Part shown: piece after piece, positions 2,891 to 63,138 of the stretch
Layout: each line of letters begins with the position of its first letter
Position numbering within the stretch: the stretch's first letter is position 1
Assembly (NCBI GenBank): GCA_963770035.1
Contig: CAVYON010000028.1
Span: 2,458 to 66,457 of the forward strand
From: an uncultured Alphaproteobacteria bacterium
Lineage (GTDB): Bacteria > Pseudomonadota > Alphaproteobacteria > Rhizobiales > Beijerinckiaceae
Direction: 5' to 3'
Length of the DNA stretch: 64,000 bases
Translations under genes and position numbers: made by a program
Notes under the pieces: model-generated
What the model was told of the DNA's origin: nothing
Seen by the model: only the letters and a program-made list of their open reading frames with translations
The model's database searches: none

Positions 2891-3958
2891 CTATCGGCCC
2901 GGCTTCCTCCAGATGTCGCGCTCGACCATTGTGGCGATCTGCCGGTCGATCACCTCGCGCCGGAAGTCGGCATGATTATACGGAGCGCGGTCGAGATAGA
3001 GGTTCTTGGGATAGATCGGCTCCTCGTAGATCGTCTGATAGACCTCGGTGCGCAGGTCCTTCATCCAGTTGTCCCACTGCGCCCGCGTGCGGTGGTCGCG
3101 CAGCGCCTCGATGTCGATCGTGCCGGCGACGTAGGACGAGCCCGCGCCGTAGTCGTGCCGGCCGACGATCCGGCCCTTGTAGTCGACGATCATCGAGCGG
3201 CCGCCAAACGTGTCGATCGGCAGGTCCGCGTCGGCGTCGAGATAATAGGTGCCCATGTTCGGGGCGACGACGAAAAAATTGTTGTCGAGCGCGCGCGCCC
3301 GGTTCTGGATCTCGAAGAACTCGTTGCCGGTGTGCGGATGCGGGTACGAGGCGCGATAGACCACCTCGGCGCCGTTCATCGCCAGCCCTCGCGCATTCTC
3401 GGGATACGATCCCTCGTTCGCCATCAAGACGCCGAGCCGGCCGATCTCGGTGTCGGCGACCGGATAGAAGGCGTCGAGCGTCTTGCCGTAAAGCTCGATC
3501 CAGCGGTCCCACACGTCGTGCGGGGTCATCGAATGCTCGACCGGATAGAGGGTCGCGAGCTTGTAGTGCTTCAGCACCACCTCGCCGTTCGGATCGATGG
3601 CGAAGCCGACGTTGAAGAAGCGGTCCGGGAACGCCTCGTGGCGCGCCTTGGCCTGGCCCATGATGAACACGTTCCACTTGCGCGCGAGGTCGCCGAGGAA
3701 TCGCGTCTCGGGGCCGGGGATGTCGATCGCCGTCTCGCGGGCGTAGGTCACGTGATCGAGGTCGAACACCTCGTCGGTGAAGCCCTGCAGCGCGCCTTCC
3801 GGCACGGCGACGAGCCGCACCGGCAAATCGAGGCTCGAGAGCCAGGAGGCGGCGGCGATCATGTGGGCGATGTGGTCGAGATTGCGCTCGATCTCCGCCC
3901 GCTTGCGCACGCCGCGCACGGTCGGGATCAGGCCGACGGCCGTATAAGGCTGAACCAT
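2891..3958 (-). CDS. Nitrilase/carbon-nitrogen hydrolase superfamily protein with Ala at the catalytic Cys position
   Basis: VPEG (Glu), HYKL (Lys), IGRLGVLMANEGSYPE..ARGLAMNGAEVV, RARALDN and GGRSMIVD motifs. Confidence 0.85.
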   Translation of the reverse strand: MVQPYTAVGLIPTVRGVRKRAEIERNLDHIAHMIAAASWLSSLDLPVRLVAVPEGALQGFTDEVFDLDHVTYARETAIDIPGPETRFLGDLARKWNVFIMGQAKARHEAFPDRFFNVGFAIDPNGEVVLKHYKLATLYPVEHSMTPHDVWDRWIELYGKTLDAFYPVADTEIGRLGVLMANEGSYPENARGLAMNGAEVVYRASYPHPHTGNEFFEIQNRARALDNNFFVVAPNMGTYYLDADADLPIDTFGGRSMIVDYKGRIVGRHDYGAGSSYVAGTIDIEALRDHRTRAQWDNWMKDLRTEVYQTIYEEPIYPKNLYLDRAPYNHADFRREVIDRQIATMVERDIWRKPGR

Positions 3959-4058
3959 GCGTTCCCTCCGGCTTTGGACGAAATGATCGGACGAGGCGCG
4001 GGCAAGGCGCTTCGCCTTCGATGGATTTGGTGGCAAGCGGCCGGCGCAGCGTCAAGGG
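3779..4058. repeat. Direct repeat copy 1 (about 280 bp): upstream region and 5' end of the nitrilase gene
   Basis: Aligns by eye with 5055..5334; both end in ...ggcgcagcgtcaaggg. Confidence 0.9.
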
Positions 4059-4315
4059 TTTTTCACGCGCCATGTTCAACCGCAGGCGCGGCCAGGTGGG
4101 GTGGCGAAGCAGGCGCAAAAGGGCTTGGAGCAAGTGTCAGCGGTTTCCCGCGATATTCTGCTATGTGGATCATGGCGCCGCAAATCGAGAGGCGGGCCGC
4201 GCTGGCGGGCGGTTGGAGCCGTCGGACCGGCCTTCGCAGCCCATGGGCGGAAACATGGCGGCGACGCCGCTTGCCCGTCAACGCGCTCGCGCCGATTGCC
4301 GTCGCCCAGGTGATG

Positions 4316-4331
4316 TGATATCAATGATATC
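4316..4331 (+). promoter_or_regulatory. Probable antitoxin operator (tandem TGATATC(A) palindromes)
   Basis: tgatatca-a-tgatatc just upstream of the GAGGAGG RBS of the RHH antitoxin. Confidence 0.5.
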
Positions 4332-4351
4332 GTCCCGATAGAGGAGGCGCG

Positions 4352-4591
4352 GTGGTGGTTGACCTGCTCGTCCGCAACGTCGACAAATCGCTCGTCCGAG
4401 CGCTGAAGGAGCGCGCCGGCGCACACGGCCGCAGCGCGGAGGCGGAGCATCGCGCGATCCTCGCTGCGGCGCTGGCGCGCCCTCGCCGGCTGAGCTTCGC
4501 CGAGGCGCTTCAGTCGATGCCGGCGGTCGGCCTCAACTCCGATTTCGAGCGGGTCGAGAGCGTTGAAGAGCCCAGCGGTGTACTTGATTGA
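4352..4591 (+). CDS. FitA-like ribbon-helix-helix antitoxin
   Basis: LLVRNVDKSLVRALKERAGAHGRSAEAEHRAIL pattern; strong RBS; overlaps the PIN toxin gene. Confidence 0.85.
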   Translation: MVVDLLVRNVDKSLVRALKERAGAHGRSAEAEHRAILAAALARPRRLSFAEALQSMPAVGLNSDFERVESVEEPSGVLD

Positions 4592-4997
4592 CACGAACGT
4601 CATCAGCGAGGCGCGAAAAGGCGACCGAGCGAACAAGGGCGTGGTCGAATTCTTCGAGGAGGTCGCCTCGTCGGGCGCTCCGCTTTTTCTTTCCTCGGTG
4701 ACCCTCGGCGAGTTGCGCCGCGGCGTGGAGCTGATCCGGCGCCGCCGCGACGCTGATCAAGCCGAGCGGCTCGAGACGTGGCTGACGAGCCTCGTCGAGT
4801 CCTTTGGCGAGCGCATTCTCGCCTTCGACGCCGACGCCGCTCAGGTCTGGGGCCGGCTCAGAGTCCCCGATCCCAGCCACGCGCTCGACAAGCAAATCGC
4901 CGCAATCGCACTCGTCAACGACCTTACCCTGGTGACCCGTAACCTCGCGGATTTCCAAGGCTTGGGGCTCAGGCTCAAGGATCCGTTCGTTTCCTAA
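4578..4997 (+). CDS. vapC: FitB/VapC-family PIN-domain toxin
   Basis: YLIDTNVISE, TLGELRRG, DKQIAAIALVNDLTLVTRN..DF motifs. Confidence 0.9.
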   Translation: MYLIDTNVISEARKGDRANKGVVEFFEEVASSGAPLFLSSVTLGELRRGVELIRRRRDADQAERLETWLTSLVESFGERILAFDADAAQVWGRLRVPDPSHALDKQIAAIALVNDLTLVTRNLADFQGLGLRLKDPFVS

Positions 4998-5054
4998 GAA
5001 GCGCGGTGAATCCCCGTTTCCCAGGACAGAATACGGGATTCCGCTGACTCCTAC

Positions 5055-5334
5055 GAAGCCCCGGAGCGCGCTTTCCGGCCGGCGACGAGAGGCGCCGGCA
5101 AGTCGAGGCTCGAGAGCCAGGAGGCGGCGGCGATCAGGGGAGCGACGGGCTCGAGATTGCGCTCGATCTCCGCCCGCTTGCGCACGCCGCGAACGGTCGG
5201 GATCAGGCCAACGGCCGTATAAGGCTGAACCCTGCGTTCCCTCCCGCTTTGAACGAAATGATCGGACGAGGGCGCGGGCAAGGCGCTTCGCCTTCGATGG
5301 ATTTGGTGGCAAGCGGCCGGCGCAGCGTCAAGGG
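5055..5334 (-). pseudogene. Degenerate copy of the nitrilase promoter and first ~60 codons (direct repeat copy 2)
   Basis: QPYTAVGLIPTVRGVRKRAEIERNL..IAAASWLSSLDLP retained; start ATG changed to AGG; indels at the distal end. Confidence 0.88.
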
Positions 5335-6537
5335 CTAATTGGCGCGGGCCGACAAGCTTTCCGACTTTGTCAGCTTCGCTGTCTTGGGGTCGTAGACGAA
5401 ACCGGCGATCGTGCCGTCCTTGATCCTTTTGACGGCCTCATCGATCGCGAACAGCGGAACGAGAAACCACTCCTTTGGAATGACGGGCTGGCCGAACCGG
5501 TCCTTGATTTCGATCTCCAGTCGAGCCGGCGCGAAGATACGGTGAATGAGATTTCGAGCCGGGTGCGATTGATGTTGTAAAGCTCGTAGGTGGCGACGAT
5601 CTCGACGTCGGCCATGAGAAACGTCGGCTGCAAGCGCGCGCCCTGGACGCGCTGCTTCACGTGCATGTTCGTGACGCCGATCTTGTGAACGAGGTCCCGG
5701 TTGGCCGCGACCAGCGGGTGATCGGATTTGCTCCTCAGGACATAGATTGTCCCGCTGGCTTGGTCGTCTTCGGCAAGTTCCTCGGAGAAGAGCGGGCCTG
5801 CGACGGGATCGGTGATCCGTCGCGCCGTTTCATCCCCGTTGAGCGCCCGCTGAAGCGACCGCATCAGCATGTTGCTCTCGGTGCCGTTGTCGAAAATCAC
5901 CCGTAGCCGCGCGTCGGTTTTCCCGTGCGGGGTAGTGAAGGTGTCCCCGGCCTCGGCGACGTAGGCCTTCTGTCCCTCAAGGACAAACCATGCGCCCTTC
6001 CTAATTTCGGCCTTCAACTCAAAGGGGCGGGTCTGTCGCGTTCCTTCGTCGAGTTCCTTCTGAATCGTCAGGAACAGCGGCTTGAACGTGTCGAAGTCGG
6101 CGCACTTCTGGCGAGTGGCGACCTCTTCCGCCGCCCGCCTCTCGGCGCCGCTCGCGACGTGACGCAGATCGGTGATGTCGGGTTCGCCGTCGGCGCCCTG
6201 CAAGTCGGCGAGCAGTTCATCCTCATCAATCGGCTCCTCCGGCTCTCGCAACCGTCGCCTCCGCGCCTACCAGCAGGCCCTGATGATCGAGCGGGGCAAG
6301 CAGCGCCCGGCAATCGTCAAGCGCGCGCAGGCGATCGAGACGGACGGCATACAGCCGCTCGAAAATGTCTCGGTCTTCGCCATGCCGAGGCGTGCGGCCA
6401 TGAGTTTCTACAAATCGCTGGATTTCCTCGAAACCCGCGATAATCCGCTCCTCGCGCGGCGGCCGGCCCGACGATTTCTCCGGTGGCGCGAAGTCCTCGA
6501 GTTCGGCGCTCAGTTCGTCGAGGTCGACATCACTCAT
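5335..6537 (-). CDS. YeeC-like T5orf172/GIY-YIG-family nuclease (two apparent frameshifts, about 6245 and 5555)
   Basis: ORFs 6226..6537 and 5370..6251 join. GTIYVL..HKIGVT and terminal PKEWFLVPL motifs; the corrected frame stops at TAG 5335-5337. Confidence 0.8.
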
Positions 6538-8587
6538 AGCGCCCCTCTTTCTTGAAGCGCATGAAGGCGGCCGCGCCCTCGGCCATCTTATTCTCCCAGG
6601 CGTCGGCCGACGCGATCGACGGCAGCCGGCCCCTCTCCTTCTTGAACTTGGAGGCCCGGACCGCGAGGGTCTTTGCCTCTTCGGGCGTCAGGGTCGTACG
6701 CTTGGCGGCGATCGCCGCCTTGACCTGTATGAGCCGTTCCTCGGTCATGCTCTTGGCGAGAATCGCGTAGGCCTCGCCGAACGGATTGATCTGGTCGATC
6801 AGATCGATGTCGAGGCCGGTGACGTCCATCGCATATTTGCGCACGCCGTCGACAAAAGCGGTATTGCCGCTCTCTTCGCCTTCAGCGAAGCCGCCGCCGG
6901 CGGCCCCGCCGCTGTTGGCGATTTCCTTCGCCTTCTGGGTGAGGTTCAGCGCGGCGACGGCGTGCTGTCGCACCGCCTCCTGATCCGCCTCGTCCAGTTC
7001 GGGATATTTGTCCTTGACGATCTTGCCCATCCGGACCTGGGTCAACTCCTCCGGGACCAGTTCCTCGTCGAAAATACCGCGCTCGATCGTCGTCTTGTCC
7101 TGCACGAAGGCGGCGATGACCTCGTTCAGGTCCTCCTGACAGATGCGCGTCGCCTCCTCGCTGTTCGGAGTCGCAAGCCCCTTGATCTCGATCTGGAACT
7201 TGCCGCTTTGCTCATCGAAGCCAACGTTGCATTTGTCGGGGTCGTAGCCGCCCTCGCCGTAATCGAAGCCCGGCGTCGGACCATTGTTCGGATTCTTCGG
7301 CTTGAATTCGAAGCGCGGCGCCAGCACCTGCTCCATCAGCAGGCTCGCCGCGATCGCCTTCAGCGTATCATTCACCGCGCCGGTCACAGCGTCGTTGGCG
7401 GCGTCCGGCTCGGCGATCAGGTTCGAGAAGTGCGCGCGCGTCTTGCCCGGCGCGTCGCGGGTCGCGCGCCCGATAATCTGCACGATCTCGGTGAGACTGG
7501 CGCGGTAGCCGACCGTCAGCGCGTGTTCGCACCAGATCCAGTCGAAACCCTCCTTCGCCATGCCGAGCGCGATGATGATGTCGACGTAGTCGCGATTGTT
7601 CTTCTGCGTCGGGTCCTTGAGCGCGGCGGAGACCTTGTCCCGCTTGGCGGGATCATCGTCCACGAGGTCCGCGATCCGCAACAGGCGCCCCTCGGGCGTC
7701 TTGACGAGCTGGAAGCCGGTCGCGGGGTCGGAGCCTTCCCAGTTCCCCAGCGCCCCAAAGATGTGCTCGACCTCCTTGACCTTGTCCTTCGTGCTCTCGC
7801 GCGAGTTGACGTTCGGGATATGGACGATCGTCTTCTCGGAGGGGTCGAGCACCTTGAGGATGTCCTCGGCATAGGCGCCGGCGTAGAAGAAATAGCCGAT
7901 GTCGAGCTGCTTCAGATATTCGTAGCCGTTGAGCTGCTCGTAGTAGGTGTAGGTGACGGTGTCGAACTTCGCCTCGTCCTGCGGGGTCAGCACGGCGTCG
8001 GCGTCGCCTCGGAAATAGGAGCCGGTCATCGCGACGATATGCACCCGGTCGCGGGCGATGAACTGGGTCAGGTGCAGGCCGAGCTTGTTGTCCGGATTGG
8101 CCGAGACGTGGTGGAATTCGTCGACGGCGATCAGCCGGTCGTCGAACGCCTCGACGCCGAACTGAGCGACGGCGAAGCGGAAGGTGGCGTGGGTGCAGAC
8201 CAGCACCTTGTCGCCGCTCACCAGAAAGGCGCCGACCGCCTTGACCTTGCCGCCGTTGTCGGGGCCGGGGGCGTTGCAGAGGTTCCATTTCGGCTCGACG
8301 CGCCAGTCGGCCCAGAAGCCGAACTTCGACAGCGGCTCGTCCTGAAAGCTCGCGCCGATGGTCTTTTCGGGCACGACGACGATCGCCTGCCTCAGTCCCT
8401 GGTTCTGGAGCTTGTCGAGGGCGATGAACATGAGCGCGCGGCTCTTGCCGGACGCCGGGGGCGACTTGATCAGGAGATACTGTTCGCCCCGCTTCTCATA
8501 GGCGCGTTCCTGCATCGGCCGCATGCCCAACGCGTTGGCCTTGGTCGAACTGCCGTTGCGGGCATAGGAGACGGAGACGGAGGGCAC
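6530..8587 (-). CDS. YeeB-like superfamily 2 (DEAD/DEAH) helicase/ATPase
   Basis: Walker A SPPASGKS, Walker B DEFHH, motif III MTGS, motif VI QIIGRATRD; stop overlaps the start of the yeeC-like gene. Confidence 0.88.
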   Translation of the reverse strand: MPSVSVSYARNGSSTKANALGMRPMQERAYEKRGEQYLLIKSPPASGKSRALMFIALDKLQNQGLRQAIVVVPEKTIGASFQDEPLSKFGFWADWRVEPKWNLCNAPGPDNGGKVKAVGAFLVSGDKVLVCTHATFRFAVAQFGVEAFDDRLIAVDEFHHVSANPDNKLGLHLTQFIARDRVHIVAMTGSYFRGDADAVLTPQDEAKFDTVTYTYYEQLNGYEYLKQLDIGYFFYAGAYAEDILKVLDPSEKTIVHIPNVNSRESTKDKVKEVEHIFGALGNWEGSDPATGFQLVKTPEGRLLRIADLVDDDPAKRDKVSAALKDPTQKNNRDYVDIIIALGMAKEGFDWIWCEHALTVGYRASLTEIVQIIGRATRDAPGKTRAHFSNLIAEPDAANDAVTGAVNDTLKAIAASLLMEQVLAPRFEFKPKNPNNGPTPGFDYGEGGYDPDKCNVGFDEQSGKFQIEIKGLATPNSEEATRICQEDLNEVIAAFVQDKTTIERGIFDEELVPEELTQVRMGKIVKDKYPELDEADQEAVRQHAVAALNLTQKAKEIANSGGAAGGGFAEGEESGNTAFVDGVRKYAMDVTGLDIDLIDQINPFGEAYAILAKSMTEERLIQVKAAIAAKRTTLTPEEAKTLAVRASKFKKERGRLPSIASADAWENKMAEGAAAFMRFKKEGRYE

Positions 8588-8658
8588 GACGGCCGAACCC
8601 TTCCGACCTTGAGCAGCCCTTCGCGCCCCGCCGCGTTGCTGACGCCTTTGCGCGGCGC

Positions 8659-8781
8659 CCCTGGCAAAATTAATTTTGCGGTCTGAAAGAAGCCAGCCGG
8701 AACCTCCGCAATATCGGACGTGTCAACGTCCTCATCCGGGATCGCCTCGATCTCAGCGACGCGCTCTTTGGAGATAGGCAT
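8659..8781 (-). pseudogene. Truncated BrnA-type antitoxin (N-terminal ~40 aa only)
   Basis: MPISKERVAEIEAIPDEDVDTSDIAEVPAGFFQTAKLILP follows brnT with overlap. No C-terminal RHH-like segment in any frame before the yeeB start. Confidence 0.6.
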
Positions 8782-9041
8782 CGAATGCTTTCCTTTCGTT
8801 CCTTGTCGCCTTCCGCGCGCTGATGATCCGTGTCTTTCCATCTCTCTCCGTGGGCGCCACGCACACAACCGTCGTGCCGCCTATGAGCCCAAAACTGATC
8901 TCGCGCTCCTCGGAATGGTGCGTGGGATCCGGCCCGGAAACGACAGGTCCCTCCCAGATCGTCGCCGCCTCCTCGAAGCTGAATTCCGTGTTTCGTGAGA
9001 TTGGCGGCATTCTTTGCGGGGTCCCACTCGAACTGGTCCAT
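8753..9041 (-). CDS. brnT: BrnT-family ribonuclease toxin (apparent +1 frameshift at about 8983)
   Basis: FEWDPAKNAANLTKHGI joins SFEEAATIW..EEREISFG..RIISARKAT when one base of GAATTC (8981-8986) is removed. Confidence 0.82.
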
Positions 9042-9163
9042 AAGGATGCCCCATCCCTTAGGTGCGCTTCCGCCAGGCCGTTATCAAGCTTTGGTTGACT
9101 TGGCGGCAGTAGGCTCGTCTTGAAGCTCGCGCCGACACCGCAACGGAGGGTTCGTTGGGATCG

Positions 9164-9532
9164 TCATGGGTCGGAGTCCGGCGGGATCAGGGGACGGAGC
9201 GCGGCGATGAGGCCCGGAAGTCTTTCGGTCGTCACGCGCCAGACGATGTCGAGCCGCACATCGTCGTAGCCGTGGATAAGACGGTGGCGCAGGCCGGTCA
9301 TCTCGCGCCAGGGAATGTCCGGATGGGCGGATGAGAAGGCCTTCGACACCTTTCCCGCCGCCTCGCCGATCACTGCCAGTTTTCGGATGACGGCGCTCTG
9401 ATGCAGGGCGCTGGCGAGGAAGGCGCGCTCATCGAGGCCGGCGACGAAGGAGAGCGCGTCCTCGGCCGCGAGCCTCATGTCGAGCAAAAGCGCGGGATCG
9501 CGCGCGCCCTCGTCCGGACGATCAGGCGGCAT
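9164..9532 (-). CDS. HepT-like (DUF86) HEPN ribonuclease toxin
   Basis: AVIRKLAVIGEAA, IPWREMTGLRHRLIHGY (Rx4HxY motif). Confidence 0.88.
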   Translation of the reverse strand: MPPDRPDEGARDPALLLDMRLAAEDALSFVAGLDERAFLASALHQSAVIRKLAVIGEAAGKVSKAFSSAHPDIPWREMTGLRHRLIHGYDDVRLDIVWRVTTERLPGLIAALRPLIPPDSDP

Positions 9533-9836
9533 AGACAGGCTCGGCCCCGTTCAGGATCAGCCGACGGCGGATATAGTTGCGGCTCGTCTCGACATCCTTG
9601 CGATCGACGAGATCCACCGGCCGTTCGAGCAGCGCTTCGAGCGCGTCGCGGAAGTCGAGATAGCGCGTTAAGCCGTCATCCGGCGGTTCGAACTCAACAA
9701 GAAAATCGACGTCGCTGGTCTCGGCGTCGAAATCTGCGCCGCGCGCCGCCGAGCCGAAGACATCGAGCCGCGCCACGCCGAACCGCCGGCAGAGGGTTTG
9801 CAGTTCGACGCGCTTTTGTTCGACCGTCGCATGCAC
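9522..9836 (-). CDS. MntA-like minimal nucleotidyltransferase antitoxin
   Basis: VFGSAARG..SDVDFLVEF and RPVDLV motifs; overlaps the HEPN gene. Confidence 0.88.
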   Translation of the reverse strand: MHATVEQKRVELQTLCRRFGVARLDVFGSAARGADFDAETSDVDFLVEFEPPDDGLTRYLDFRDALEALLERPVDLVDRKDVETSRNYIRRRLILNGAEPVYAA

Positions 9837-9889
9837 CGAAGGAGTCCTTTCCTGCTCGCAATCTAGATTACGCAGATCATAGAGGCCCC

Positions 9890-9960
9890 GTCATCGCGAG
9901 CGAAGCGAAGCGATCCAGAGGAACGTAGAGCGCCCGGCGGCCCCTGGATTGCTCGTCGCC
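9890..9960. repeat. Partial REP/RIME-like palindromic repeat (gtcatcgcgagcgaagcgaagcgatcc...ggattgctcgtcgc)
   Basis: Internal inverted arms; same start motif as the element at 14913..14995. Confidence 0.55.
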
Positions 9961-10032
9961 TTGGGTCGCAGCCTGCGACATTGAAACATCTCTCCTGGCT
10001 GCTTGATTCCTTGCTTGGCGGTCGGCGCGCGG

Positions 10033-10164
10033 CTTCCTCCCCCTTGTGGGGGAGGATTGAGGAGGGGGGTCGCACTGAACTTCGAAAGTTTGGCGTCCTT
10101 CCCCTTGCAAATGAGAGATCAGCGCGACCCCCCATCCCTGCCTTCCCCCACAAGGGGGGAAGGA
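10033..10164. repeat. Long palindromic REP-like element, copy A
   Basis: Arms ctcccccttgtggggga..ggggggtcgc / gcgacccccc..ttcccccacaagggggga. Confidence 0.75.
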
Positions 10165-10202
10165 GAACGCCTTCAGTTTGACCGGCGCGCATCACCAGGC
10201 AG

Positions 10203-10449
10203 TTACTCCTCTCCTATCCCGGCTCCTCGAGCCTCGGCCCTTCGCGCGCTGCCCTTCGGCGGCTTCCCGCCTTCGCCATCCTTGGCGGCGGTCATCTTCG
10301 TATAAAGCTCGAACAGCTTTTCCAGCCGCTCCGTGTCATTTTTGAACCGGCGGCCAATGTAGATGCGCTCCAGCGCCTCGTCGTTGCGCTCGTGCGCCTC
10401 TCGCAAGTCGGCCGGCATGGCGTCGGGGTCGTAGAGGTCGGCGATCGTC
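10203..10449 (-). pseudogene. Orphan second copy of the methyltransferase C-terminus (ATIADLYDPDAMP...GIGEE*)
   Basis: ORF 10203..10499; codon usage differs from the in-gene copy. Confidence 0.85.
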
Positions 10450-10455
10450 GCGCGG

Positions 10456-10591
10456 CTTCCTCCCCCCTTGTGGGGGAGGATTGAGGAGGGGGGTCGCACT
10501 GAACTTCGAAAGTTTGGCTCGTCCTTCCCCTTGCAAATGAGAGGTCAGCGCGACCCCCCATCCCTGCCTTCCCCCACAAGGGGGGAAGGAG
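10456..10591. repeat. Long palindromic REP-like element, copy B
   Basis: Near-identical to 10033..10164. Confidence 0.75.
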
Positions 10592-10628
10592 AACGCCTTC
10601 AATTTGACCGGCGCGCATCACCAGGCAG

Positions 10629-13541
10629 TTACTCCTCTCCTATCCCGGCTCCTCGAGCCTCGGCCCTTCGCACGCTGCCCTTCGGCGGCTTCCCGCCTTC
10701 GCCATCCTTGGCGGCGGTCATTTTCGTGTAAAGCTCGAACAGCTTTTCCAGCCGCTCGGTGTCGTTCTTGAACCGGCGGCCGATGTAGATGCGCTCCAGC
10801 ACTTCGTAGTTCGCTCGGTGTCGTTCTTGAACCGGCGGCCGATGTAGATGCGCTCCAGCACCTCGTCGTTACGCTCGTGCGCCTCTCGCAGGTCGGCGGG
10901 CATGGCGTCGGGGTCGTAGAGATCGGCGATCGTCGCCGGGAAATGCGCCTCGCGGGCCAGCAGGATGTCCTCGGCGCAGCGGGTCAAGTCGGCCTTGTTC
11001 TTTTCGGTCAGCGTTGGGACCGGGAAAGTGTTCCAGCCGAGGTTGTTCGAATATCAGAATTCAGTTCGCAGTCTTACCGCAAATAGTAGATATCCATACT
11101 CAGATGAAGTTTGGATGTAATGAATAGAAAAGTCTACTAGAGCGAAGGCTTTGTAAATGGCAAAAGCTAGATGTTGTAATTACTATATTTCGAGTTCCAA
11201 CAGGCCGACTGGTAAATACTGCTCTCCTTTCCGAAGAAACCTGTGGGCACCAAAAATTGCGAGTCATCGACAAGTATCTCCTATTGAACGAAATCTGGTG
11301 CGGTCGCGCCGTAAGTGTGGCCGCAACTTCGCCGCCGTTTTTCCGGTACGCTAAGGACATTATCAATTCGCGCTGGACACCTCTGGCACTTTCTCGGATC
11401 AATCAGACTAAATCTGTTATCGTCATAGCCACAGGCAATAGCGAAGCCACCCATGATATGAACTCCGCTAGTTCCAGTAAGCTCGACGTATTATGAAGAC
11501 AAACTCCGGTTCGAGTCGAGCTAAGCCTTCGGGCTGAAGCTGCGTCAAGAAAAAGATTTCCCCCGTCATAAGGCGCATTGCCGAGTGATCATCGGAGACA
11601 GACCATTGCTGATTCTTAGATTTTCCGACAAACGATGACATCGTCGCCTTCAACAAGATATGCATTTATATTTATGCACTCTCCTTGGGACGATACTCGC
11701 CATAAATGTGTTTTTGCCGAATATGGCGTTTCGTTAGTCAGTCCAATGATGGTACAGGAAACACCGGCATTATGTTGTGCGATTGTTCGCCCATTTGAAA
11801 GAGTGCGATAGGCAAATTCAAGCCGGCATGCATAATTATAAACAAGTGGCCAAAGAACAGATACATGTATTCCTTGACAGATAGAATTAGTCGTAACAAA
11901 CGTGACGGCGTTTATCTCCAAATCTAAGAAACTGACTAAATCTTTATTATAAACCAGCCCGCACACGTAGTCTAAAGATTCGTTATGATTTCTCATCATG
12001 ACACAAATATTTGAGCCATATCATTTTTCTGATCGCTGGTCATGTTTCTTTCCCCCTATGTATGGAGGATTGCCGCATATATAAGTTTCTCCGCCTGCAT
12101 TCTCGAAATCGATTTGCGCTTGATCAAGCGGCGTGCTGAAACAGATCGTCGGCGTGCCAGCTTCACGCCCGTCCCTGTCGGCGGACAAACGCTCAACCAA
12201 TCCAGCCGCAGCGCATTTCCGCAAGTGATCCAGTTCTCCGCGTTCAGCGGCAGGAACTCGGCCAGCGCCTCCTTCTGGCCCGCGGTAGAGCACGTCGCAC
12301 TGGATACTCGGCGATGATGAGGGCAAGCCGCGCGATCTCGGCCGGAAAGTCGCGCAGCTCGATCCCGCGAAAATTCGTCAGCGGAATATCGCTCTTGCAG
12401 CCCGTCTTCCTTTCGTCGCCGGTTGATCTCCGCCTCGATCGCCCGCATCTCCTTGTAGGCGATGACGAGGAAATTGCCGGAGCCGCAGGCCGGGTCGAAC
12501 ACCCGGATCCGCGCCATGCGCCTGCGCAGGTTGAGCAGCATCCGGGAATTGTCGCCGGCCTCCTCCAAACGCGCCCGCAGGTCGTCGAGGAACAGCGGGT
12601 TCAGCACCTTCAAAATGTTCGGCACGCTGGTGTAGTGCATCCCAAGCGCGCCGCGCTCCTCGTCCTCCGCGACCGCCTGGATCATCGACCCGAAAATGTC
12701 CGGGTTGATCTTGGTCCAGTCGAGCCGGCCGACGTGAAGGAGATAGGCGCGCGCGGCCCGGCTGAAGCGCGGCGCGTCCAGGCTGCCCGAAAACAGCCCG
12801 CCGTTCACGTAAGGGAAGCGCGTCGGCCCAGCGCGGCAGCTTCGCCGCCGCGCGGTCCGCGCCCTTGGTGTTCATCGCCCGGAAGATCGCGCCGATCACC
12901 TCATGGGTGTTGGACGAGTCCCGTTCGCTCATCTGTTCGATGGCGCCACTGAAAAGCGAGTCGCCCAGAAAGATGTCGGTCCGTTGCGCGAAGAAGCAGA
13001 AGATCAGCCGCGCCATGAAATGGTTCATGTCGTGGCGGCGGGCGGCCGAGCCCCAATCGGGGTTTTCCTTCAGGAGCTCGACATAGAGCCGGTTCAGCCG
13101 GCTCGTCGCCCTGATGTCGAAGGCGTTCTCGCTGATCTGCTGGACGGTCGTAATGCCGGCGAGGGGCAGGAAGAAGCCGAAATGGTCCGGGAAGTCGGCG
13201 TAGCGGCAGGCGACGGTCCCGCCGCCGCCGACGTCCTCGGCTTCGAACCACTCGCCGTCCGTCGCCAGAACGAATTTCGCCTTCGCCTTGGCCGTCGCCG
13301 GGCTGGCCTTCAGCGCCGCCAGCGTTTTCGTGACCTCGCCGGAGGCGGCGACGGCGATATGGATGTTGTTGGTCTGAAGGACGCCGCCGAGGTCCGACCT
13401 GTTCGATTCGCCCTTGCGGAGGCGTTTGAGCGTCGTCTCTTTGTTGCCGAACGCTTCGAGGAAGGCGAACGGGAACTCCTGCGGATCAAACGGCCGCTCG
13501 GCCAGCCTGGTTACCGCCTCTTCGATCTCGACAGCGTTCAT
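10629..13541 (-). CDS. YeeA/MmeI-family N6-adenine DNA methyltransferase with target-recognition domain (multiple frameshifts as sequenced)
   Basis: RLIFCFFA, YVNGGLF, INPDIFGSMIQAV, GMHYTSVPNILKV, motif I VFDPACGSGNFL, motif IV CGNPPY, then FVTTNSICQG, VSSERR, GWNTFPVP and TIADLYDPDAMP C-terminal motifs spread over several frames. Confidence 0.85.
11050..12130 (-). other. AT-rich segment covering the methyltransferase target-recognition region
   Basis: Abrupt drop to roughly 40-45% GC (estimated by eye) inside a gene whose flanks are GC-rich; homologous motifs continue through it. Confidence 0.85.
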
Positions 13542-13714
13542 TTTCTAGAATCGCCCACCGGGCCGACAGTCCCCGCAACGCAGCATCGATAGCTCGTTTT
13601 TATGCGGCCACGCCAGGAAGATGTTTTGAACGCCGCTTTGCGCCACCGGCATGAGCGGCCCTCCCCCGCCTCCGCAAAAATCCCGCCCCGCTGAAACCTT
13701 TCGGCGTTTTGACC

Positions 13715-14003
13715 CCGTCACCGCAAACCCCGCATCTTGGAAAGAAAGCTGGCGAAAGTGTAATCTTCGCGCCACATTTTTGGCCCGGATCTCCCCGATG
13801 ACCGTCGCCGCTGAACAGGAAATTCCGCTCAGCCAGAACTGGACCTCGAGATCGGCAGACGCAGGATGTCGCGCAGAGCAGAAACGTTGATTCCACTGCC
13901 CGTCGCTTTGCTGGCCGTGAGCGTCGCCGCGCACGCCACGAGCCGCTCGCCCACCGCCGACCTGATGGATCCGTCGCCAACCCGTCCGTCAAGGAAATGG
14001 TGA
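13715..14003 (+). pseudogene. Degenerate copy of the cupredoxin promoter and signal-peptide region (repeat of 15039..15338)
   Basis: Shared blocks such as gaaagctggcgaaa.tgtaatcttcgcgcc, gaactggacctcgagatcgg and gacctgatggatccgtcg. ATG at 13866 gives MSRRAETLIPLPVALLAVSVAAHATSR.. then a deletion, a frameshift and a stop. Confidence 0.88.
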
Positions 14004-14080
14004 CGTCGTTCTGTCCGGGAAAGCTCGCCGCACGATCGTGTGGGACGATCCCTCCCTCCACCCCACCCTGGAGAGCGTGA

Positions 14081-14536
14081 ATGAGCGAAACACAGGTTGA
14101 TGATCTTTATGCCCTCCGCGCCGAGGTCGAGCAGTTGCGGAGGCAGAGCGACGAAACACGCCGCAGCACGCATATTCTCAGCGAGCAGGCGCATGACCAT
14201 GCCGCGCTGATCCTGGCTTATCAAGAGGCGGAAAGAGCCCTCCGCGACCGCGTCGCGGTGCTGGAGGAGGCGCTGCGGAAATCCGTGGAGACTTGTGCGC
14301 GAGAAGCCGCCTATTGGGCCATCAAAGGTGGCAGTCCTGAACTGATCGCTTCAAGAATCCGCGCCCTCACCCCAGCGCAGCCCTCACCCCCTCCCGACCC
14401 CACTCCGCAGTCCGTCATAGACGCCATGGGCTTCGACCCGTTCGCGTCAACACCGGATGGCCCTCCCGCGCCCGACCCGCGCGATGAGAGGATCAGGAGG
14501 CTGGAGGAGGCGTTGGGGAAGGCACGGGCCCTTTGA
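14081..14536 (+). CDS. Hypothetical coiled-coil protein with a Pro-rich linker
   Basis: GGAG RBS upstream, 151-aa ORF, heptad-like LRAEVEQLRR and ERIRRLEEAL; no recognisable family. Confidence 0.5.
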   Translation: MSETQVDDLYALRAEVEQLRRQSDETRRSTHILSEQAHDHAALILAYQEAERALRDRVAVLEEALRKSVETCAREAAYWAIKGGSPELIASRIRALTPAQPSPPPDPTPQSVIDAMGFDPFASTPDGPPAPDPRDERIRRLEEALGKARAL

Positions 14537-14544
14537 GGCCATGA

Positions 14545-14830
14545 ATGTCGAGCGAGGCTGCCCTGGTCGATCTCGAAGGTCTCCTCGCTGGAATGGCTGA
14601 GGAAGATAAGCGGCATGAGATCCGATCTCTCGGACGTTCTCTGCTGAGCAGATTTCGGTCTATCGGAATTCCAAAACGAATACGCCATCGCCCGCGACGC
14701 TCTGGAGGTCGAGGCGGGCGTCGACCGGCGTGTCACGCGCCAGGCGACCCTCGGACTCTTTTATTCAGGTTCGCTCGCTCCGCGCGATCAGGACAACGCC
14801 ATCAAGGGCCGTTTGCACGTCGCCTTCTGA
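14545..14830 (+). CDS. Hypothetical ~94-aa protein (restored by removing one base at GAATTC 14666-14671)
   Basis: MSSEAALVDLEGLL..FRSIG + FQNEYAIARDALEVEAG..RLHVAF*; closely follows the upstream ORF. Confidence 0.4.
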
Positions 14831-14910
14831 GCGGCCAATGGGCGGCGGAAGGATGAGGCGGCCTGTAAAGGTTCAACCTGATCTCCTGAATCAATTCAAG
14901 CATCCCGCAA

Positions 14911-14997
14911 CCGTCATTGCGAAGAGCGACCCCCGGGTCGAAGAGCCCGGGGGGACGAAGCAACCATGGAATCTTCGCCTTCGGCTCGCAATGACGG
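14911..14997. repeat. REP/RIME-like element with terminal inverted repeats ccgtcattgcga...tcgcaatgacgg
   Basis: 12-bp perfect terminal inverted repeat and an internal ccccggg/cccgggg hairpin. Confidence 0.75.
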
Positions 14998-15190
14998 CGG
15001 CGGAACTTGGCGCACTTATTTTGCTGTGTGTCCTAACACCGTCACCGCTAACCCCGCGTCGTCGGAGAGAAAGCTGGCGAAACTGTAATCTTCGCGCCGC
15101 ACTTTGGGCCCGCATCTCCCGGATGACCATCGCCGCTGAACAGGAAAGTCCGCTCAGCCGGAACTGGACCTCGAGATCGGGAGACAAGGG

Positions 15191-15646
15191 ATGTTACGCA
15201 GAGCAGCAACGTTAATTCCAATGACCGTCGCTTTGCTGGCCGTGGGCGCCGCAGCGCACGCCACGAGCCGGCCGTCCACAGTGGTGCACGTCGACCTGAT
15301 GGATCCGTCGACAAACCCGTCCGTCAAGGAAATGGTGATCAAATCGGACACGAAAGACGTGCCGGCGGGGCCCGTTGTCTTCCAAGTTTCCAACGACTCG
15401 AAGAACCTCGTTCACGAGATGATTGTCGTCTCGGTCGCGGAACCGCGCGCGGCGCTTCCTTATGACCGTAAAGACGGCCGCGTTGACGAAGCCAAAATCA
15501 AAGATCTCGGCGAAGCGCCCGATCTCAAGCCGGGAGAGAAGAAAACTTTGCAGCTCACGTTGAAGCCGGGCAATTATCTCCTGATCTGCAATCAGCCGGA
15601 TCACTACAAGAGCGGCATGGAAACCAGCCTTATCGTCACCCAATGA
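15191..15646 (+). CDS. Secreted cupredoxin (plastocyanin/azurin-family blue copper protein)
   Basis: Signal peptide, VHEM and CNQPDHYKSGM type-1 copper ligands. Confidence 0.88.
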   Translation: MLRRAATLIPMTVALLAVGAAAHATSRPSTVVHVDLMDPSTNPSVKEMVIKSDTKDVPAGPVVFQVSNDSKNLVHEMIVVSVAEPRAALPYDRKDGRVDEAKIKDLGEAPDLKPGEKKTLQLTLKPGNYLLICNQPDHYKSGMETSLIVTQ

Positions 15647-39827: not shown

Positions 39828-41840
39828 CCCGACTTTCTCAACCGAGGTAGCGCGCGAGCGGAAAGGCGCGTGGAATTAAGGGTAGGCTGCCGAAGGTCTC
39901 CACTACATGGGGCGCAACGGGAGCTGCGCCGCCGGACCGGGAACGGCGATTTGCGGCGGCGGCTGCGGCGGCAGGGCGAGGCCGAGTTGTTGCAGGAGAA
40001 GCTTCTGGTCGACATTCGGCTCGGTGTGTCGGCACATGATCAGCGTTCGGCCGTCGGTGGTGGGGAAGTGGACGTCGAGCATTTGTATGCCGGCGAGCTT
40101 GTCGAGCACGGCGCGCGGGGTGAGGCCGGCGGCCATCGGCCGGAGCCGGGCGCGCAGCGTGACGTGCAGGCAATAGGCGAGGAAGGCCACGAAGATGTGC
40201 GCCTCGACGCGGCTCTCGAGCTGGTGGTAGATCGGCCGGAGTTGCAGATCGTCCTTGAGGTTCTTGAAGGCCGCCTCGACTTCGACGAGTTGAATGTAGA
40301 ACCGCCACAGGTCGGCGGGATCGCGCCCAGACATGTTGGTGCGCAAAAGGTAGCGGCCTTCGCGCCGGCGCGCCTGGCGCAGCTTCTTGCGGTTGAGCGC
40401 GTAAGTGAAGGCGGCGGTGTGGGGATCGACCTTGATGTCGAGGAGGCGCCACGCCGCGGGCGCCTTGGCTTTGGCGGCGCCGAGCTTCATCAGTAGGCTC
40501 TCGCGGGTGAGGTCCATCAGCGCCAGCTTCGCCAGGCGCGCCCACAGCCATTTCAACCGCCGCTTCCGCATGGCGCGCTCCTTGTCGATGCGCGCCCGGC
40601 TCTGGGCGAACACGTAAAGCTCGTCGTCCTCGGCCAAGAGCTTCACTTCGACGCCCGGCCGCACCTCATGCCACGGCAGGCCGACGAGAGACTTCTCCAG
40701 CTTGCCGAGGCGTCCCTTCGGGGTCCCCACCAGATAGGCGACCGGCGGATCGGATTGCCGCATTTCGGCGAGCACGTCCTCGGTGGGGATGCCGCGGTCC
40801 ATCACCCAGATGCGCTCCGCCTTGCCGTACTGCGCCTCGATCTTCGAAAGGAAGGCGCGCAGCGTCGTCTTGTCGGAAGTATTGCCGGGGAGAACCTCGT
40901 AGGCGAGCGGAAAGCCGTCGGGTGTCACCACGAGCGCAATGACCACCTGCACGCAGTCCGGACGCTTGTCGCGGCTGTAGCCGTAGCGGCGTTTGTCGCT
41001 GTCGTCGTCCGGCGGGTCGGATTCGAAGTACGTGCTGGTCAGATCATAGAGAAGGACGTCGAAGCGGGCGCCGAACAGATCCTGCCACCGCCGGCGCAGG
41101 TGCGTGAACAGCGCCGGCTTGTGCTCGACGAGCTTGTCGAGGCAACGATAGAGCGCGTTCTTCTCGACCAGCGCGAAATCTTCGCCGAGCAGATCGCCCA
41201 TGGCGCTTTGCTCGAACCACAGCCGGTGTAAACGCCATTCGCTGCCCGGATCGATGAGCCGGTAACACGCCAGCGTCTGGAGAATGTGCCGCCAGCAGGT
41301 TCCTTCGCGGGAATTGGGCAGACGGGCCGCCCAGAAGCGGTCGAGTTCCAGTTGCTCGTAGAGCTGGCAGGCGAGCCAGCACGCGCCCCATTGCCGCGGC
41401 CGGTGTAGTTGCATGGCCCCGAGCCGGATCTGCACGCCGTGGTCCTCGGCGTGTTCGGGCAGCGGCCGATCGGCGGGGAACAGGGCCAATTGGGTCGGCT
41501 GTCGCGCCTCCTCGTCGAAAGCTTCGATCACCCGGCACCACGCCTCCTCCTGGCTGTCGTTGATCTCGCCAAGATAAAGCACCTGGCGCTGCACCACCTT
41601 GCCGCCGGCGCAGCGCTTGCTCTCGACAATGCTCCAGTAGCAGTGCTCCTTGCCGTCCTTGAGACGGCGATTCGGTCGCAAATACATGGCGACCCCAGTC
41701 TACGCCAAACGCGCAATCTGAAAAGATACTAGGTCTCCACTACACGGCTATTTCAAAACCCGGCCATTGATCCGACTCGTCTTTTGCTCCTTCCCAGCCC
41801 CAAAATTCGTTCCCAGCCTGCTCCGGTTGAGAAAGTCGGG
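39828..41840 (-). mobile_element. IS1634-family insertion sequence, complete (~2.0 kb)
   Basis: 17-bp terminal inverted repeats cccgactttctcaaccg / cggttgagaaagtcggg, each flanked by TTAA. Confidence 0.9.
39903..41687 (-). CDS. IS1634-family DDE transposase
   Basis: LLYDLTSTYFE, GYSRDKRPDC.QV, VMDRG, VEAAFKNLK, RPIYH..RVEAHIFVAFLAY. Confidence 0.92.
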   Translation of the reverse strand: MYLRPNRRLKDGKEHCYWSIVESKRCAGGKVVQRQVLYLGEINDSQEEAWCRVIEAFDEEARQPTQLALFPADRPLPEHAEDHGVQIRLGAMQLHRPRQWGACWLACQLYEQLELDRFWAARLPNSREGTCWRHILQTLACYRLIDPGSEWRLHRLWFEQSAMGDLLGEDFALVEKNALYRCLDKLVEHKPALFTHLRRRWQDLFGARFDVLLYDLTSTYFESDPPDDDSDKRRYGYSRDKRPDCVQVVIALVVTPDGFPLAYEVLPGNTSDKTTLRAFLSKIEAQYGKAERIWVMDRGIPTEDVLAEMRQSDPPVAYLVGTPKGRLGKLEKSLVGLPWHEVRPGVEVKLLAEDDELYVFAQSRARIDKERAMRKRRLKWLWARLAKLALMDLTRESLLMKLGAAKAKAPAAWRLLDIKVDPHTAAFTYALNRKKLRQARRREGRYLLRTNMSGRDPADLWRFYIQLVEVEAAFKNLKDDLQLRPIYHQLESRVEAHIFVAFLAYCLHVTLRARLRPMAAGLTPRAVLDKLAGIQMLDVHFPTTDGRTLIMCRHTEPNVDQKLLLQQLGLALPPQPPPQIAVPGPAAQLPLRPM

Positions 41841-49991: not shown

Positions 49992-50064
49992 GGTCATGTC
50001 CTTGAATTGTGGAGCCGGTTCCGAGCCTCCAGGACTCGCAACCCCCAGCGCCTCGGAAAAGACT

Positions 50065-61932: not shown

Positions 61933-63138
61933 GGCAGCTTCTTGCGTTGTCCCAGGTTCGCCTAAATGTGGTATCCAGTCCTGGTTGAGCCGCGCTTCGG
62001 GGCTCCGAAGGGACAGCCTGTGGCAAGGGGGCGATCACTCACCGAATTCCAGAAGGAGTTTCCCGACGAGGCGAGCTGTGCGGCTTTCTTGTTCAACCGT
62101 CGCTGGCCAAGCGGCTTCGTGTGTCCTTCCTGCGGCGGCAATCGCGCCGCCGCGCTGAAGAGCCGGGCATACACCTTCGAGTGCTATGGCTGCCGTCGTC
62201 AGACTTCGATCACGGCGGGCACAGCGATGCACCGCACGCGGCTGCCGCTGACGGCGTGGTTCTGGGCCGGCCATTTGATGGCGACACATTCCAACGGCAT
62301 GTCGGCGCGGCAGTTGGAGGATCAACTCGGCCTCACCTACAGAACAGCTTGGCTGCTGGCGCAGAAACTGCGGCGCTCGATGGTCGATCCGGATCGCGAA
62401 CTTCTCGAAGGCGTCGTCGAAGTCGATCAGGCCGAAATCCCTTTCCGTGAAGGCGATATGTTTTTCGAGCCCGGCGACGCGGGCAAAATCCTCATCATCG
62501 GCGCTGTCGAGGTGATCGAACGCGACACCCACCTGTCCAAACCGCGCCGCAAACACGCAAAATATCTCGATACCCGTTCAGGCCGCGTCCGCCTCGCGGT
62601 GATCGCCGACAACACGGCGGCCTCGATCGAGGCTTTCGTGCGAGCCAATGTAAAGCCCGGCGCGACGTTGCTGACGGACGGCCACGCCTCGTATCCAGGA
62701 TTGACCGACTACCGCCACGATCCGCGCATCGTCGGCAAGATGGCCGCGCACATCGTGCTGCCCTGGATTTATAGGGTCTTCGCCCTGGTGAAGCGGTGGG
62801 GATTGGGCACCTATCACGGACTGCGCCGCAAGCACGCCGATACTTATCTCAACGAGTTCGTGTTCCGCTACAACCGCCGCTTCTATCGTCACGCTTCGTT
62901 CGAAACCGTGCTCGGCCTCACGGCGCATCACGCGCCCGCGAGCTATTGGGACATCATCGGCCGCGCCAATCCGCGCAAGGGAACCGCGACGCCCCGCCGA
63001 GCGCCGAGACGCAGAAAGACCGCGACCGGAATGCGTCAGGACAGCATCGGCGGCGCGGAAAATGGCGGCCAAAATCAAGCGGCTACCGTGCCGACGACAC
63101 CAAATGTGGATAAACCTGGGACAACGCAATAAGCTGCC
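61933..63138 (+). mobile_element. IS1595-family insertion sequence (~1.2 kb)
   Basis: 26-bp inverted repeats ggcagctt(c/a)ttgcgttgtcccaggtt; flanking duplication TGGCGC (up to CTGGCGCGG, depending on where the ends are placed). Confidence 0.92.
62020..63132 (+). CDS. IS1595-family transposase
   Basis: RWPSGFVCPSC..ECYGCRRQTSITAGT zinc ribbon, GVVEVD, LLTDG, YHGLRRKH..YLNEFVFRYNRR. Confidence 0.93.
   Translation: MARGRSLTEFQKEFPDEASCAAFLFNRRWPSGFVCPSCGGNRAAALKSRAYTFECYGCRRQTSITAGTAMHRTRLPLTAWFWAGHLMATHSNGMSARQLEDQLGLTYRTAWLLAQKLRRSMVDPDRELLEGVVEVDQAEIPFREGDMFFEPGDAGKILIIGAVEVIERDTHLSKPRRKHAKYLDTRSGRVRLAVIADNTAASIEAFVRANVKPGATLLTDGHASYPGLTDYRHDPRIVGKMAAHIVLPWIYRVFALVKRWGLGTYHGLRRKHADTYLNEFVFRYNRRFYRHASFETVLGLTAHHAPASYWDIIGRANPRKGTATPRRAPRRRKTATGMRQDSIGGAENGGQNQAATVPTTPNVDKPGTTQ

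Follow-up and report, generated by a model that had tools for sequence, protein, structure and literature searches.

A probable member of the DnmA(YeeA)-YeeB-YeeC family with a mosaic methyltransferase gene and toxin-antitoxin cargo in an uncultured alphaproteobacterium

Does a methyltransferase gene full of frame breaks, followed at some distance by genes for a helicase and a GIY-YIG-like protein, represent a working multi-subunit restriction system, and if so, of which kind? The question is raised by positions 5335-13541 of a 64,000-nucleotide stretch of DNA (contig CAVYON010000028.1, positions 2,458 to 66,457; the window in what follows) from an uncultured alphaproteobacterium of the Beijerinckiaceae, in which a first-pass annotation had recognized a trio resembling Bacillus subtilis yeeABC and had proposed a split Type ISP-like restriction or defence system. 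The identity of the trio is confirmed here by domains, motifs and gene order, and we consider it likely that the locus is a member of the known DnmA(YeeA)-YeeB-YeeC family and adds no new kind of system. As to function, we assign a probability of roughly 0.5 to the reading of YeeABC as a Type I-like, ATP-dependent restriction-modification (RM) system. The comparison was made with 80 related loci, the best 80 of at least 578 when one genome per species was scanned, from Alpha-, Beta-, Gamma- and Deltaproteobacteria, Acidobacteriota, Bacillota, Bacteroidota, Verrucomicrobiota and Gemmatimonadota.

The gene order on the minus strand is yeeA-like, passenger genes, yeeB-like and yeeC-like (Table 1). 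The motifs named in the first-pass annotation are all present on the minus strand within 5335-13541: DPACGSGNF (12470-12496) and NPPY (12060-12071) in yeeA; SPPASGKS (8441-8464), DEFHH (8108-8122) and QIIGR (7466-7480) in yeeB; IYVL (5736-5747), KIGVT (5670-5684) and EWF (5464-5472) in yeeC. Its description of three co-oriented genes holds for the orientation; the genes are not all adjacent, cargo lying between yeeA and yeeB, nor are yeeA and yeeC open frames as written. DPACGSGNF and NPPY fall in different frames, KIGVT and EWF likewise, and yeeB (685 amino acids, aa) is the only one of the three genes that is open. The yeeA ATG is at 13541. The overlap of yeeB and yeeC is as annotated, the yeeB TGA (6530-6532) overlapping the yeeC ATG (6535-6537) in ATGAGTGA, and yeeC, which ends with the stop codon at 5335-5337, is translationally coupled to yeeB. 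Pfam searches with the yeeA fragments return MmeI_N, MmeI_hel, MmeI_Mtase and MmeI_C at E-values of 1e-14 to 1e-36, and the frame-corrected gene encodes all five MmeI domains at full length (MmeI_Mtase with 354 bits, MmeI_TRD with 202 bits, together with MmeI_N, MmeI_hel and MmeI_C). YeeB is recognized as DEAD/ResIII, and corrected YeeC matches T5orf172 (48 bits) and MUG113 (55 bits), both at full length; we take these two Pfam families to be members of the GIY-YIG clan.

With B. subtilis YeeABC the locus shares the three-gene architecture and order, a PD-ExK-less MmeI-like methyltransferase with its target recognition domain (TRD), a DEAD/DExH helicase and a T5orf172/GIY-YIG protein. It differs in the toxin-antitoxin cargo between yeeA and yeeB. 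YeeB in the clade of the window is 78-90% identical across phyla; in B. subtilis, C-terminal stretches are missing from both YeeB and YeeC (PMC9973331). The likeness rests on architecture, on source names (the Joint Genome Institute, JGI, uses 'YeeA') and on the literature.

Linkage of the three genes is complete. Among loci whose contig left room for the neighbour gene, yeeA lies upstream of the yeeB relative in 63/63 (intact in 60) and yeeC downstream of it in 76/76 (intact in 74), with a yeeB-yeeC spacing of -4 to +74 nt, which answers in full the co-occurrence count that the first-pass annotation had suggested. A broken yeeA next to intact yeeB and yeeC is seen in L004, L044 and L061; intact trios occur in Bradyrhizobium, on an Agrobacterium plasmid and on a sister contig (L086). 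Plasmids of Methylosinus, Agrobacterium, Sinorhizobium, Klebsiella and Acinetobacter carry the trio, those of Klebsiella and Acinetobacter being conjugative, and RefSeq names the plasmid-borne products DNA methyltransferase, DEAD/DEAH box helicase and GIY-YIG nuclease family protein. YeeB and YeeC each match at least 8000 protein clusters, and at least 578 species genomes carry the locus. In Bradyrhizobium sp. 38 (L002, 1-7000) an integrative element carries the intact trio as part of a defence island; the trio has as its neighbours genes for an integrase, an Abi_C protein and a reverse transcriptase and a uracil-DNA glycosylase (UDG)-like gene, with RepB-primase and NikA-like genes downstream.

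The division of labour among the three proteins can be approached from their domains. YeeA aligns with residues 105-908 of MmeI (PDB code 5HR4) at an E-value of 3e-141; the alignment begins at YeeA residue 82-85 and runs to the end, leaving the first 100 MmeI residues unmatched. The catalytic triad of MmeI is D70, E80 and K82 (PMC2731913). At ungapped offset its counterparts in YeeA would be the invariant D50, I60 and I62, and a conserved [DE]xK is absent from residues 1-160 across 42 YeeA homologues. Judged from these alignments, the YeeA N-terminal domain lacks a PD-ExK triad, in agreement with the first-pass annotation, which had seen no clear PD-(D/E)xK motif there. More widely, no Mrr/PD-ExK-type nuclease domain was found in YeeA, YeeB or YeeC.

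In YeeB, helicase motifs I (GKS), II (DEFH), III (TGS) and VI (QxxGRxxR) are intact and invariant in 44 sequences, and Pfam finds no nuclease domain. The protein of the window is 89% identical to database proteins, and the ratio of non-synonymous to synonymous change (dN/dS) is about 0.08-0.12. For a defence-linked gene YeeB is unusually conserved, at 78-85% identity across Alphaproteobacteria, Bacillota (Tumebacillus, Cohnella), Bacteroidota and Acidobacteriota, even though synonymous change has reached saturation (dS about 1). The family is compact, with 2630 of 1.84 billion cluster representatives matching at E<=0.001, few of them full-length, and it falls into few clusters at 50% identity. 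The AlphaFold model of YeeB has a mean confidence (pLDDT) of 59 and is confident only in RecA1. A fold search with it returns generic superfamily 2 (SF2) helicases, among which EcoR124I HsdR ranks 23rd and LlaBIII 41st; placement of the subfamily by structure was dropped, given the poor model and generic SF2 matches at TM-scores of about 0.2.

The T5orf172 domain of YeeC holds seven residues (Y265, R268, K285, R296, E328, H332 and E356) that are invariant in 62 sequences. Its predicted structure (pLDDT 64) matches viral T5orf172 proteins and models labelled 'endonuclease' at E-values of 7e-5 to 5e-3, and gives only weak matches in the PDB, to an SH3-like barrel. NCBIfam and PDB sequence searches with YeeB and YeeC found nothing. 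The idea that the C-terminus of YeeB is homologous to the N-terminus of YeeC was also set aside, as BLASTP gave no alignment.

The yeeA gene is a mosaic, in which two conserved high-GC arms flank a foreign low-GC specificity cassette. In comparison with all 80 loci, similarity at the DNA level is confined to 13541-12061 and 11109-10812, and the 950 nt between these arms have no DNA relative in the 80 loci. The cassette has 44% GC compared with 64% in the window, and its GC content at third codon positions (GC3) is 0.35, where the arms have 0.88-0.91; averaged over 62 intact homologues, GC3 is 0.55 in this segment, against 0.73 and 0.70 for the arms. The closest relative, L001, carries a different cassette of equal length. 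Such a pattern is the mark left when recombination within conserved arms replaces a specificity cassette, and it explains the low-GC stretch without recourse to hypermutation. GC-to-AT hypermutation as the origin of the 44% GC was ruled out on two grounds: the codon-position GC of 0.49/0.41/0.35 fits low-GC coding DNA, and the intact homologues share the GC dip.

A second point of exchange lies between yeeA and yeeB. This gap measures at most 66 bp in 27 loci and 0.43-4.3 kb in 33 (33/60, 55%). In the window it holds an MNT/HepT module (9164-9836), BrnT with a partner open reading frame (ORF; 8470-9041), two palindromes resembling repetitive extragenic palindromic (REP) elements and a second yeeA 3' end. 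The partner ORF returned no match in Pfam; it is homologous to the BrnT partner ORFs of L030, L058, L066 and L070. Elsewhere the gap is occupied by BrnT with its partner, PIN/VapC, Zeta toxin, RhuM, YhcG/DUF1016, SLFN-AlbA_2 with HATPase_c_4, GmrSD_N, a NucS-like protein, DUF6575 and several unknowns, so that the MNT/HepT and BrnT modules of the window are ordinary occupants of the yeeA-yeeB slot. The same passenger repertoire sits embedded in Type I restriction operons. Some gap proteins have no Pfam match, for example those of 277 aa in L006, 286 aa in L022 and 448 aa in L024. In the closest clade a conserved ORF of about 70 aa has 4-nt overlaps with both the stop of yeeA and the start of yeeB; it has no Pfam match, and its N-terminus resembles the start of a 394-aa cargo protein of L054. 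It could be a fourth component in that clade.

How these features relate to systems of known mechanism can now be considered. Type ISP enzymes (LlaGI, LlaBIII) share with the trio the nuclease, SF2 motor, adenine methyltransferase and TRD activities and an asymmetric site, but are single polypeptides with an Mrr-type nuclease, whereas YeeABC comprises three proteins with a GIY-YIG-type candidate nuclease. The suggested Type ISP membership is accordingly abandoned: the locus does not encode a single polypeptide, has no Mrr/PD-ExK nuclease, and its YeeB was placed by the fold search only in generic SF2. Type I systems (EcoR124I, EcoKI) resemble it in their separate subunits, one of them a motor, in swappable specificity modules and in the kinds of passengers, and restriction by YeeABC would be expected to depend, as theirs does, on the specificity/modification subunit. 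Unlike Type I, YeeABC has no HsdS, its TRD is fused to the methyltransferase, its nuclease is not fused to the motor, and modification is expected on a single strand. MmeI (Type IIL/IIG) has the helical spacer, gamma-class methyltransferase, TRD and C-domain of YeeA; it cuts with its own PD-ExK site, whereas YeeA is without the triad and would need its partner genes. BREX PglX likewise has an MmeI-like methyltransferase for self-marking, but PglX models score at most 24 bits, against cut-offs of 400-900, no PglZ, BrxC or BrxL was found near the trio, and no PglZ or BrxC-PglY domains among the ORFs of 1-20 kb. The locus thus lacks what defines Type ISP, Type I, MmeI-type Type IIL and BREX, although its mode of action may be close to that of Type I or Type ISP. 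In the literature, no newer named system with the YeeABC architecture was found.

In the Type I-like scheme, YeeA would read an asymmetric site and methylate one strand. On unmodified DNA it would recruit YeeB and/or YeeC through its nuclease-dead N-domain, YeeB would translocate at the expense of ATP and YeeC would cut; restriction would require YeeA. The same scheme was put forward by Morgan et al. in 2009: an MmeI-like subunit provides specificity and modification, a separate helicase is the motor and a separate GIY-YIG protein cuts, an arrangement that these authors likened to Type I systems (PMC2731913). The proposal of the first-pass annotation, a three-subunit system with YeeC as nuclease and YeeB as motor, is sound but was therefore not new. 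We propose it for four reasons: the defence by Vibrio yeeAB, the hemimethylation of GACGAG, the viable dnmA deletion and the genomes with broken yeeA (L004, L044 and L061). B. subtilis YeeA (DnmA) places N6-methyladenine (m6A) at the asymmetric sequence GACGAG, which leaves the site hemimethylated, and its deletion is harmless (PMC7261158, PMC9973331). The yeeAB genes of Vibrio crassostreae protect against one phage group or clade (Piel et al., bioRxiv 10.1101/2021.05.05.442762). They belong to the same gene family and provide its only published phage-defence phenotype; host and specificity are other than here, and the published test is a gene inactivation only.

Several findings weigh against this scheme and favour the idea that the family does not cleave DNA at all, with YeeA a regulatory orphan methyltransferase and YeeB and YeeC either relics or parts of a BREX-like, non-cutting phage block. 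The dnmA-yeeB-yeeC genes of B. subtilis restrict neither plasmids nor three phages, and deletion of dnmA changes gene expression (PMC7261158, PMC9973331). Phages do not avoid the DnmA motif (PMC9973331). The Streptococcus mutans DnmA has been described as regulatory, and YeeA-like enzymes are treated as orphans there and in B. subtilis. PglX of BREX is also MmeI-like, the matches being weak. Pfam calls T5orf172 a DNA-binding domain, and the YeeC model matched no solved GIY-YIG nuclease in the PDB at E<=0.001. Nor did the fold search place YeeB among the motors of Type I, III or ISP. As to the negative B. subtilis tests, their authors blame the absent phenotype on the missing C-terminal stretches of YeeB and YeeC (PMC9973331). 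A family that does not cleave is hard to reconcile with the 100% linkage and translational coupling in 80 species of many phyla, with the strong purifying selection on YeeB or with the invariant GIY-YIG-type residues of YeeC. Cassette turnover and cargo are typical of restriction loci, the Vibrio phenotype is one of defence, and PglZ and BrxC were not found nearby. We consider a non-cleaving family unlikely, about half as probable as the Type I-like system. The complete linkage, the turnover of cassettes and the cargo slot speak for a functioning system of several subunits that merits biochemical study.

Whether the window copy itself is intact depends on how its frame breaks are read. Frame events were mapped by DNA alignment to intact homologues and by frameshift-aware protein-to-DNA alignment; as a control, the procedure was applied to four intact yeeA genes, with references whose specificity domains differed from theirs, and gave 0 events. 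About 33 single-base corrections are needed in yeeA, nearly all of them removals of an extra base: six extra bases in the 5' arm (near 12819, 12405, 12304, 12281, 12159 and 12136), about 25 in the central cassette and three corrections in the 3' arm. The gene also holds a 59-bp tandem duplication (10753-10877). Two corrections are needed in yeeC (+1 near 6247-6249 and -1 near 5551-5554), one in brnT (an extra base near 8981) and none in yeeB. The spectrum, about 36 insertions versus 1-3 deletions outside homopolymers, is the opposite of the deletion bias of natural bacterial pseudogenes. Frame correction raises the identity of the cassette to its best protein relatives from 42% to 61-67%.

Comparison contigs came from soil-metagenome runs X1, X2, X3 and X5 of one study, in which the organism of the window is present (X1 holds 68% of the sampled words of one chromosomal flank). 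X3 contigs otherwise identical to the window have a T added after 5551 and one base fewer at 6247, and both yeeC frameshifts are therefore absent in X3. In an ordinary gene of the window, encoding a sugar ABC-transporter ATPase, an extra base at 55074 that breaks the frame is missing in X1, X3 and X5, and further extra bases relative to the soil runs stand at 50064, 51648 and 52312; there are also missing bases relative to near-identical soil contigs, one at 51654 and one C in a C-run at 10038. Insertion-biased single-base discrepancies thus amount to about 0.6 per kb in ordinary genes versus about 30 per kb in the yeeA cassette, and at such a background rate the zero events in the 2-kb yeeB are unremarkable. 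Three metagenome contigs of the closest clade with assembler-style 'contig_N' names (L001, L084 and L085) contain 15-20 events, most of them +1, which cluster in the yeeA cassette; the JGI contig L086 of the same clade has an intact trio.

Alleles of yeeA differ among the strains of these soils. The X3 strain has yeeB and yeeC identical to those of the window and yeeA arms only about 90-96% identical. X1 and X2 contain a yeeA allele in which 12439 is followed immediately by 10949, so that about 1.46-1.49 kb, with the entire cassette, is absent; its flanks are 98-99% identical and there are 4 nt of microhomology. Allelic heterogeneity at yeeA among co-existing strains is the likely cause of the frame breaks. 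That YeeABC forms a distinct, widespread ATP-dependent RM class, made up of an MmeI-type reader and methylase, a separate motor and a GIY-YIG nuclease, with the cassette and the cargo slot (a collector of toxin-antitoxin and nuclease genes) as its two exchange points and several yeeA alleles (the cassette of the window, a deletion allele and others) in one soil population on an otherwise identical yeeB-yeeC background, has in our estimate slightly less than an even chance.

The +1 spectrum, the full-length corrected domains, the clean yeeC of X3 and the same clustering in L001, L084 and L085 lead us to regard the roughly 36 breaks as probable insertion-biased consensus errors of the assembly. 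If so, the organism has an intact yeeB-yeeC pair and probably an intact yeeA. Some findings count against this conclusion. The cassette (11089-12056) is covered by no soil run, single-base correction leaves in place the 59-bp duplication and four stop codons, which lie at three sites, and the 1489-nt internal deletion in a close relative in X1 and X2 is real, so genuine loss of yeeA does occur. These observations suit a genuinely decaying relic, in which yeeA, yeeC and brnT have been inactivated, perhaps following self-restriction brought on by an exchange of the cassette, with yeeB and hepT/mnt as the only survivors. Three genes are broken as written next to a 2-kb yeeB without an event, and the window branch of the yeeA arm shows somewhat more non-synonymous changes than that of L001 (26 vs 7); this excess largely vanishes once the intact sister L086 is included. 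Decay would not be expected to scatter insertions outside repeats in such excess over deletions, to spare yeeC in otherwise identical contigs, to put extra bases of this type into ordinary genes of the window or to leave domains that score full-length once corrected. Ordinary pseudogene decay is thus disfavoured by the spectrum, soil-contig and domain evidence; we think it improbable, with perhaps one chance in four. Two related ideas were not used. Maintenance of yeeB by selection while yeeA and yeeC decay was dropped, since L001, L084 and L085 had been retrieved through intact YeeB and thus carry a selection bias, and a signature of both alleles being kept at the six arm insertions is compatible with chance. 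Read as consensus errors, the breaks carry a warning for other genomes: assemblies can gather dozens of spurious +1 frameshifts in strain-variable specificity cassettes, mimicking pseudogenes, and pseudogene calls for such cassettes in 'contig_N' assemblies may be artefacts of strain heterogeneity.

A PADLOC run, proposed in the first-pass annotation, succeeded for YeeA only, and there as a Type IIG enzyme: the yeeA pieces match model PDLC03598 (REase_MTase_IIG), intact YeeA (L002, 7230-10001) matches it over its full length with 928 bits, and the database has no model for yeeB or yeeC. That yeeA is a self-contained Type IIG/IIL enzyme with yeeB and yeeC as unrelated neighbours, as the full-length match would have it, is very improbable in view of the missing PD-ExK triad, the invariant linkage to both genes and the finding that YeeA and a second such protein had no endonuclease activity when expressed (PMC2731913). 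Since PDLC03598 fits a PD-ExK-less YeeA and PADLOC has no models for the partners, automated annotation mislabels the trio, taking it for a system of one gene; tools for defence annotation report just a 'Type IIG' enzyme and overlook YeeB and YeeC. What this work adds to the published model is the quantitative linkage, the anatomy of cassette and cargo slot, the recognition of PADLOC's stand-alone Type IIG filing and the warning about spurious frameshifts.

Table 1. Positions of features of the yeeABC-like locus in the window, followed by features of related loci in their own coordinates.
Feature	Position	Strand	Evidence
yeeA/dnmA-like gene (MmeI-family N6-adenine methyltransferase + TRD)	10629..13541	-	Pfam, PADLOC on fragments, frameshift-aware alignment
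yeeA conserved 5' arm (N-terminal domain, helical spacer, methyltransferase to NPPY)	12061..13541	-	76-90% DNA identity to 80 loci
yeeA variable specificity cassette (C-terminal half of methyltransferase + TRD)	11109..12060	-	44% GC
Second yeeA 3' end (MmeI_C, ATIADLYDP to stop), then REP-like element	10203..10451	-	Repeat analysis
REP-like palindromic element	10017..10165	.	Inverted repeats of 43-50 nt
REP-like element, second copy	10440-10591	.	Inverted repeats of 43-50 nt
MNT-type nucleotidyltransferase antitoxin (cargo)	9522..9836	-	Pfam NTP_transf_2, E 1e-11
HepT-type RNase toxin (cargo)	9164..9532	-	Pfam HepT-like, E 2e-23
BrnT toxin gene (cargo)	8753..9041	-	Pfam BrnT_toxin; alignment to BrnT of L070
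Short ORF 3' of brnT, in the place of the antitoxin, overlapping the yeeB start	8470..8781	-	Position and similarity
yeeB-like SF2 (DExH) helicase, 685 aa	6530..8587	-	Open frame, motifs I, II, III and VI
yeeC-like gene (N-terminal helical region, SH3-like barrel, C-terminal T5orf172/MUG113)	5335..6537	-	Corrected translation, Pfam
Left boundary, 264-bp direct-repeat copy of 3796-4058	5071..5334	.	Repeat analysis
Example cargo gaps of related loci	L015 8157-9845; L023 8836-9900; L028 8238-9983; L039 8965-9972		
ORF of about 70 aa in the closest clade	L001 9792-10004; L085 3167-3379; L086 5950-6165		
Clusters of +1 events in yeeA of relatives	L001 7000-9800; L084 4238-6960; L085 244-3150		

The second yeeA 3' end corresponds to the last 83 yeeA codons and lies within a 426-bp tandem repeat. 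The two copies differ by 17 substitutions, mostly synonymous transitions, with only 2 amino-acid changes; the second copy is therefore a real second allele, and its being a noisy duplicate of the first was ruled out on the same ground. The core motif of the REP-like elements occurs four times, versus 0.02 expected. The duplicated 3' arm with its REP element looks like either a leftover of cassette exchange or two alleles chained by the assembler.

On the left, the direct repeat that bounds the locus (3796-4058 and 5071-5334; 263-264 bp, 91-100% identical) is the 5' end of a nitrilase (carbon-nitrogen hydrolase) gene, and its second copy stops exactly at the yeeC stop. The copies bracket a FitAB/VapBC (FitA-like/PIN) toxin-antitoxin pair (4352-4997), an arrangement that suggests insertion of the pair by single-crossover integration. 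Upstream of yeeA a 216-bp direct repeat (13739-13954 and 15064-15279, 88% identical) brackets small ORFs of unknown function (14081-15215). An Rfam search over 4000-15500 found nothing, and no tRNA genes were found. The window is otherwise chromosomal, with RNase H, prfB, inositol catabolism and sugar ABC transporter genes, and it contains two transposase genes, of the DDE_Tnp_1 and IS1595 types, at 39903-41699 and 61966-63132.

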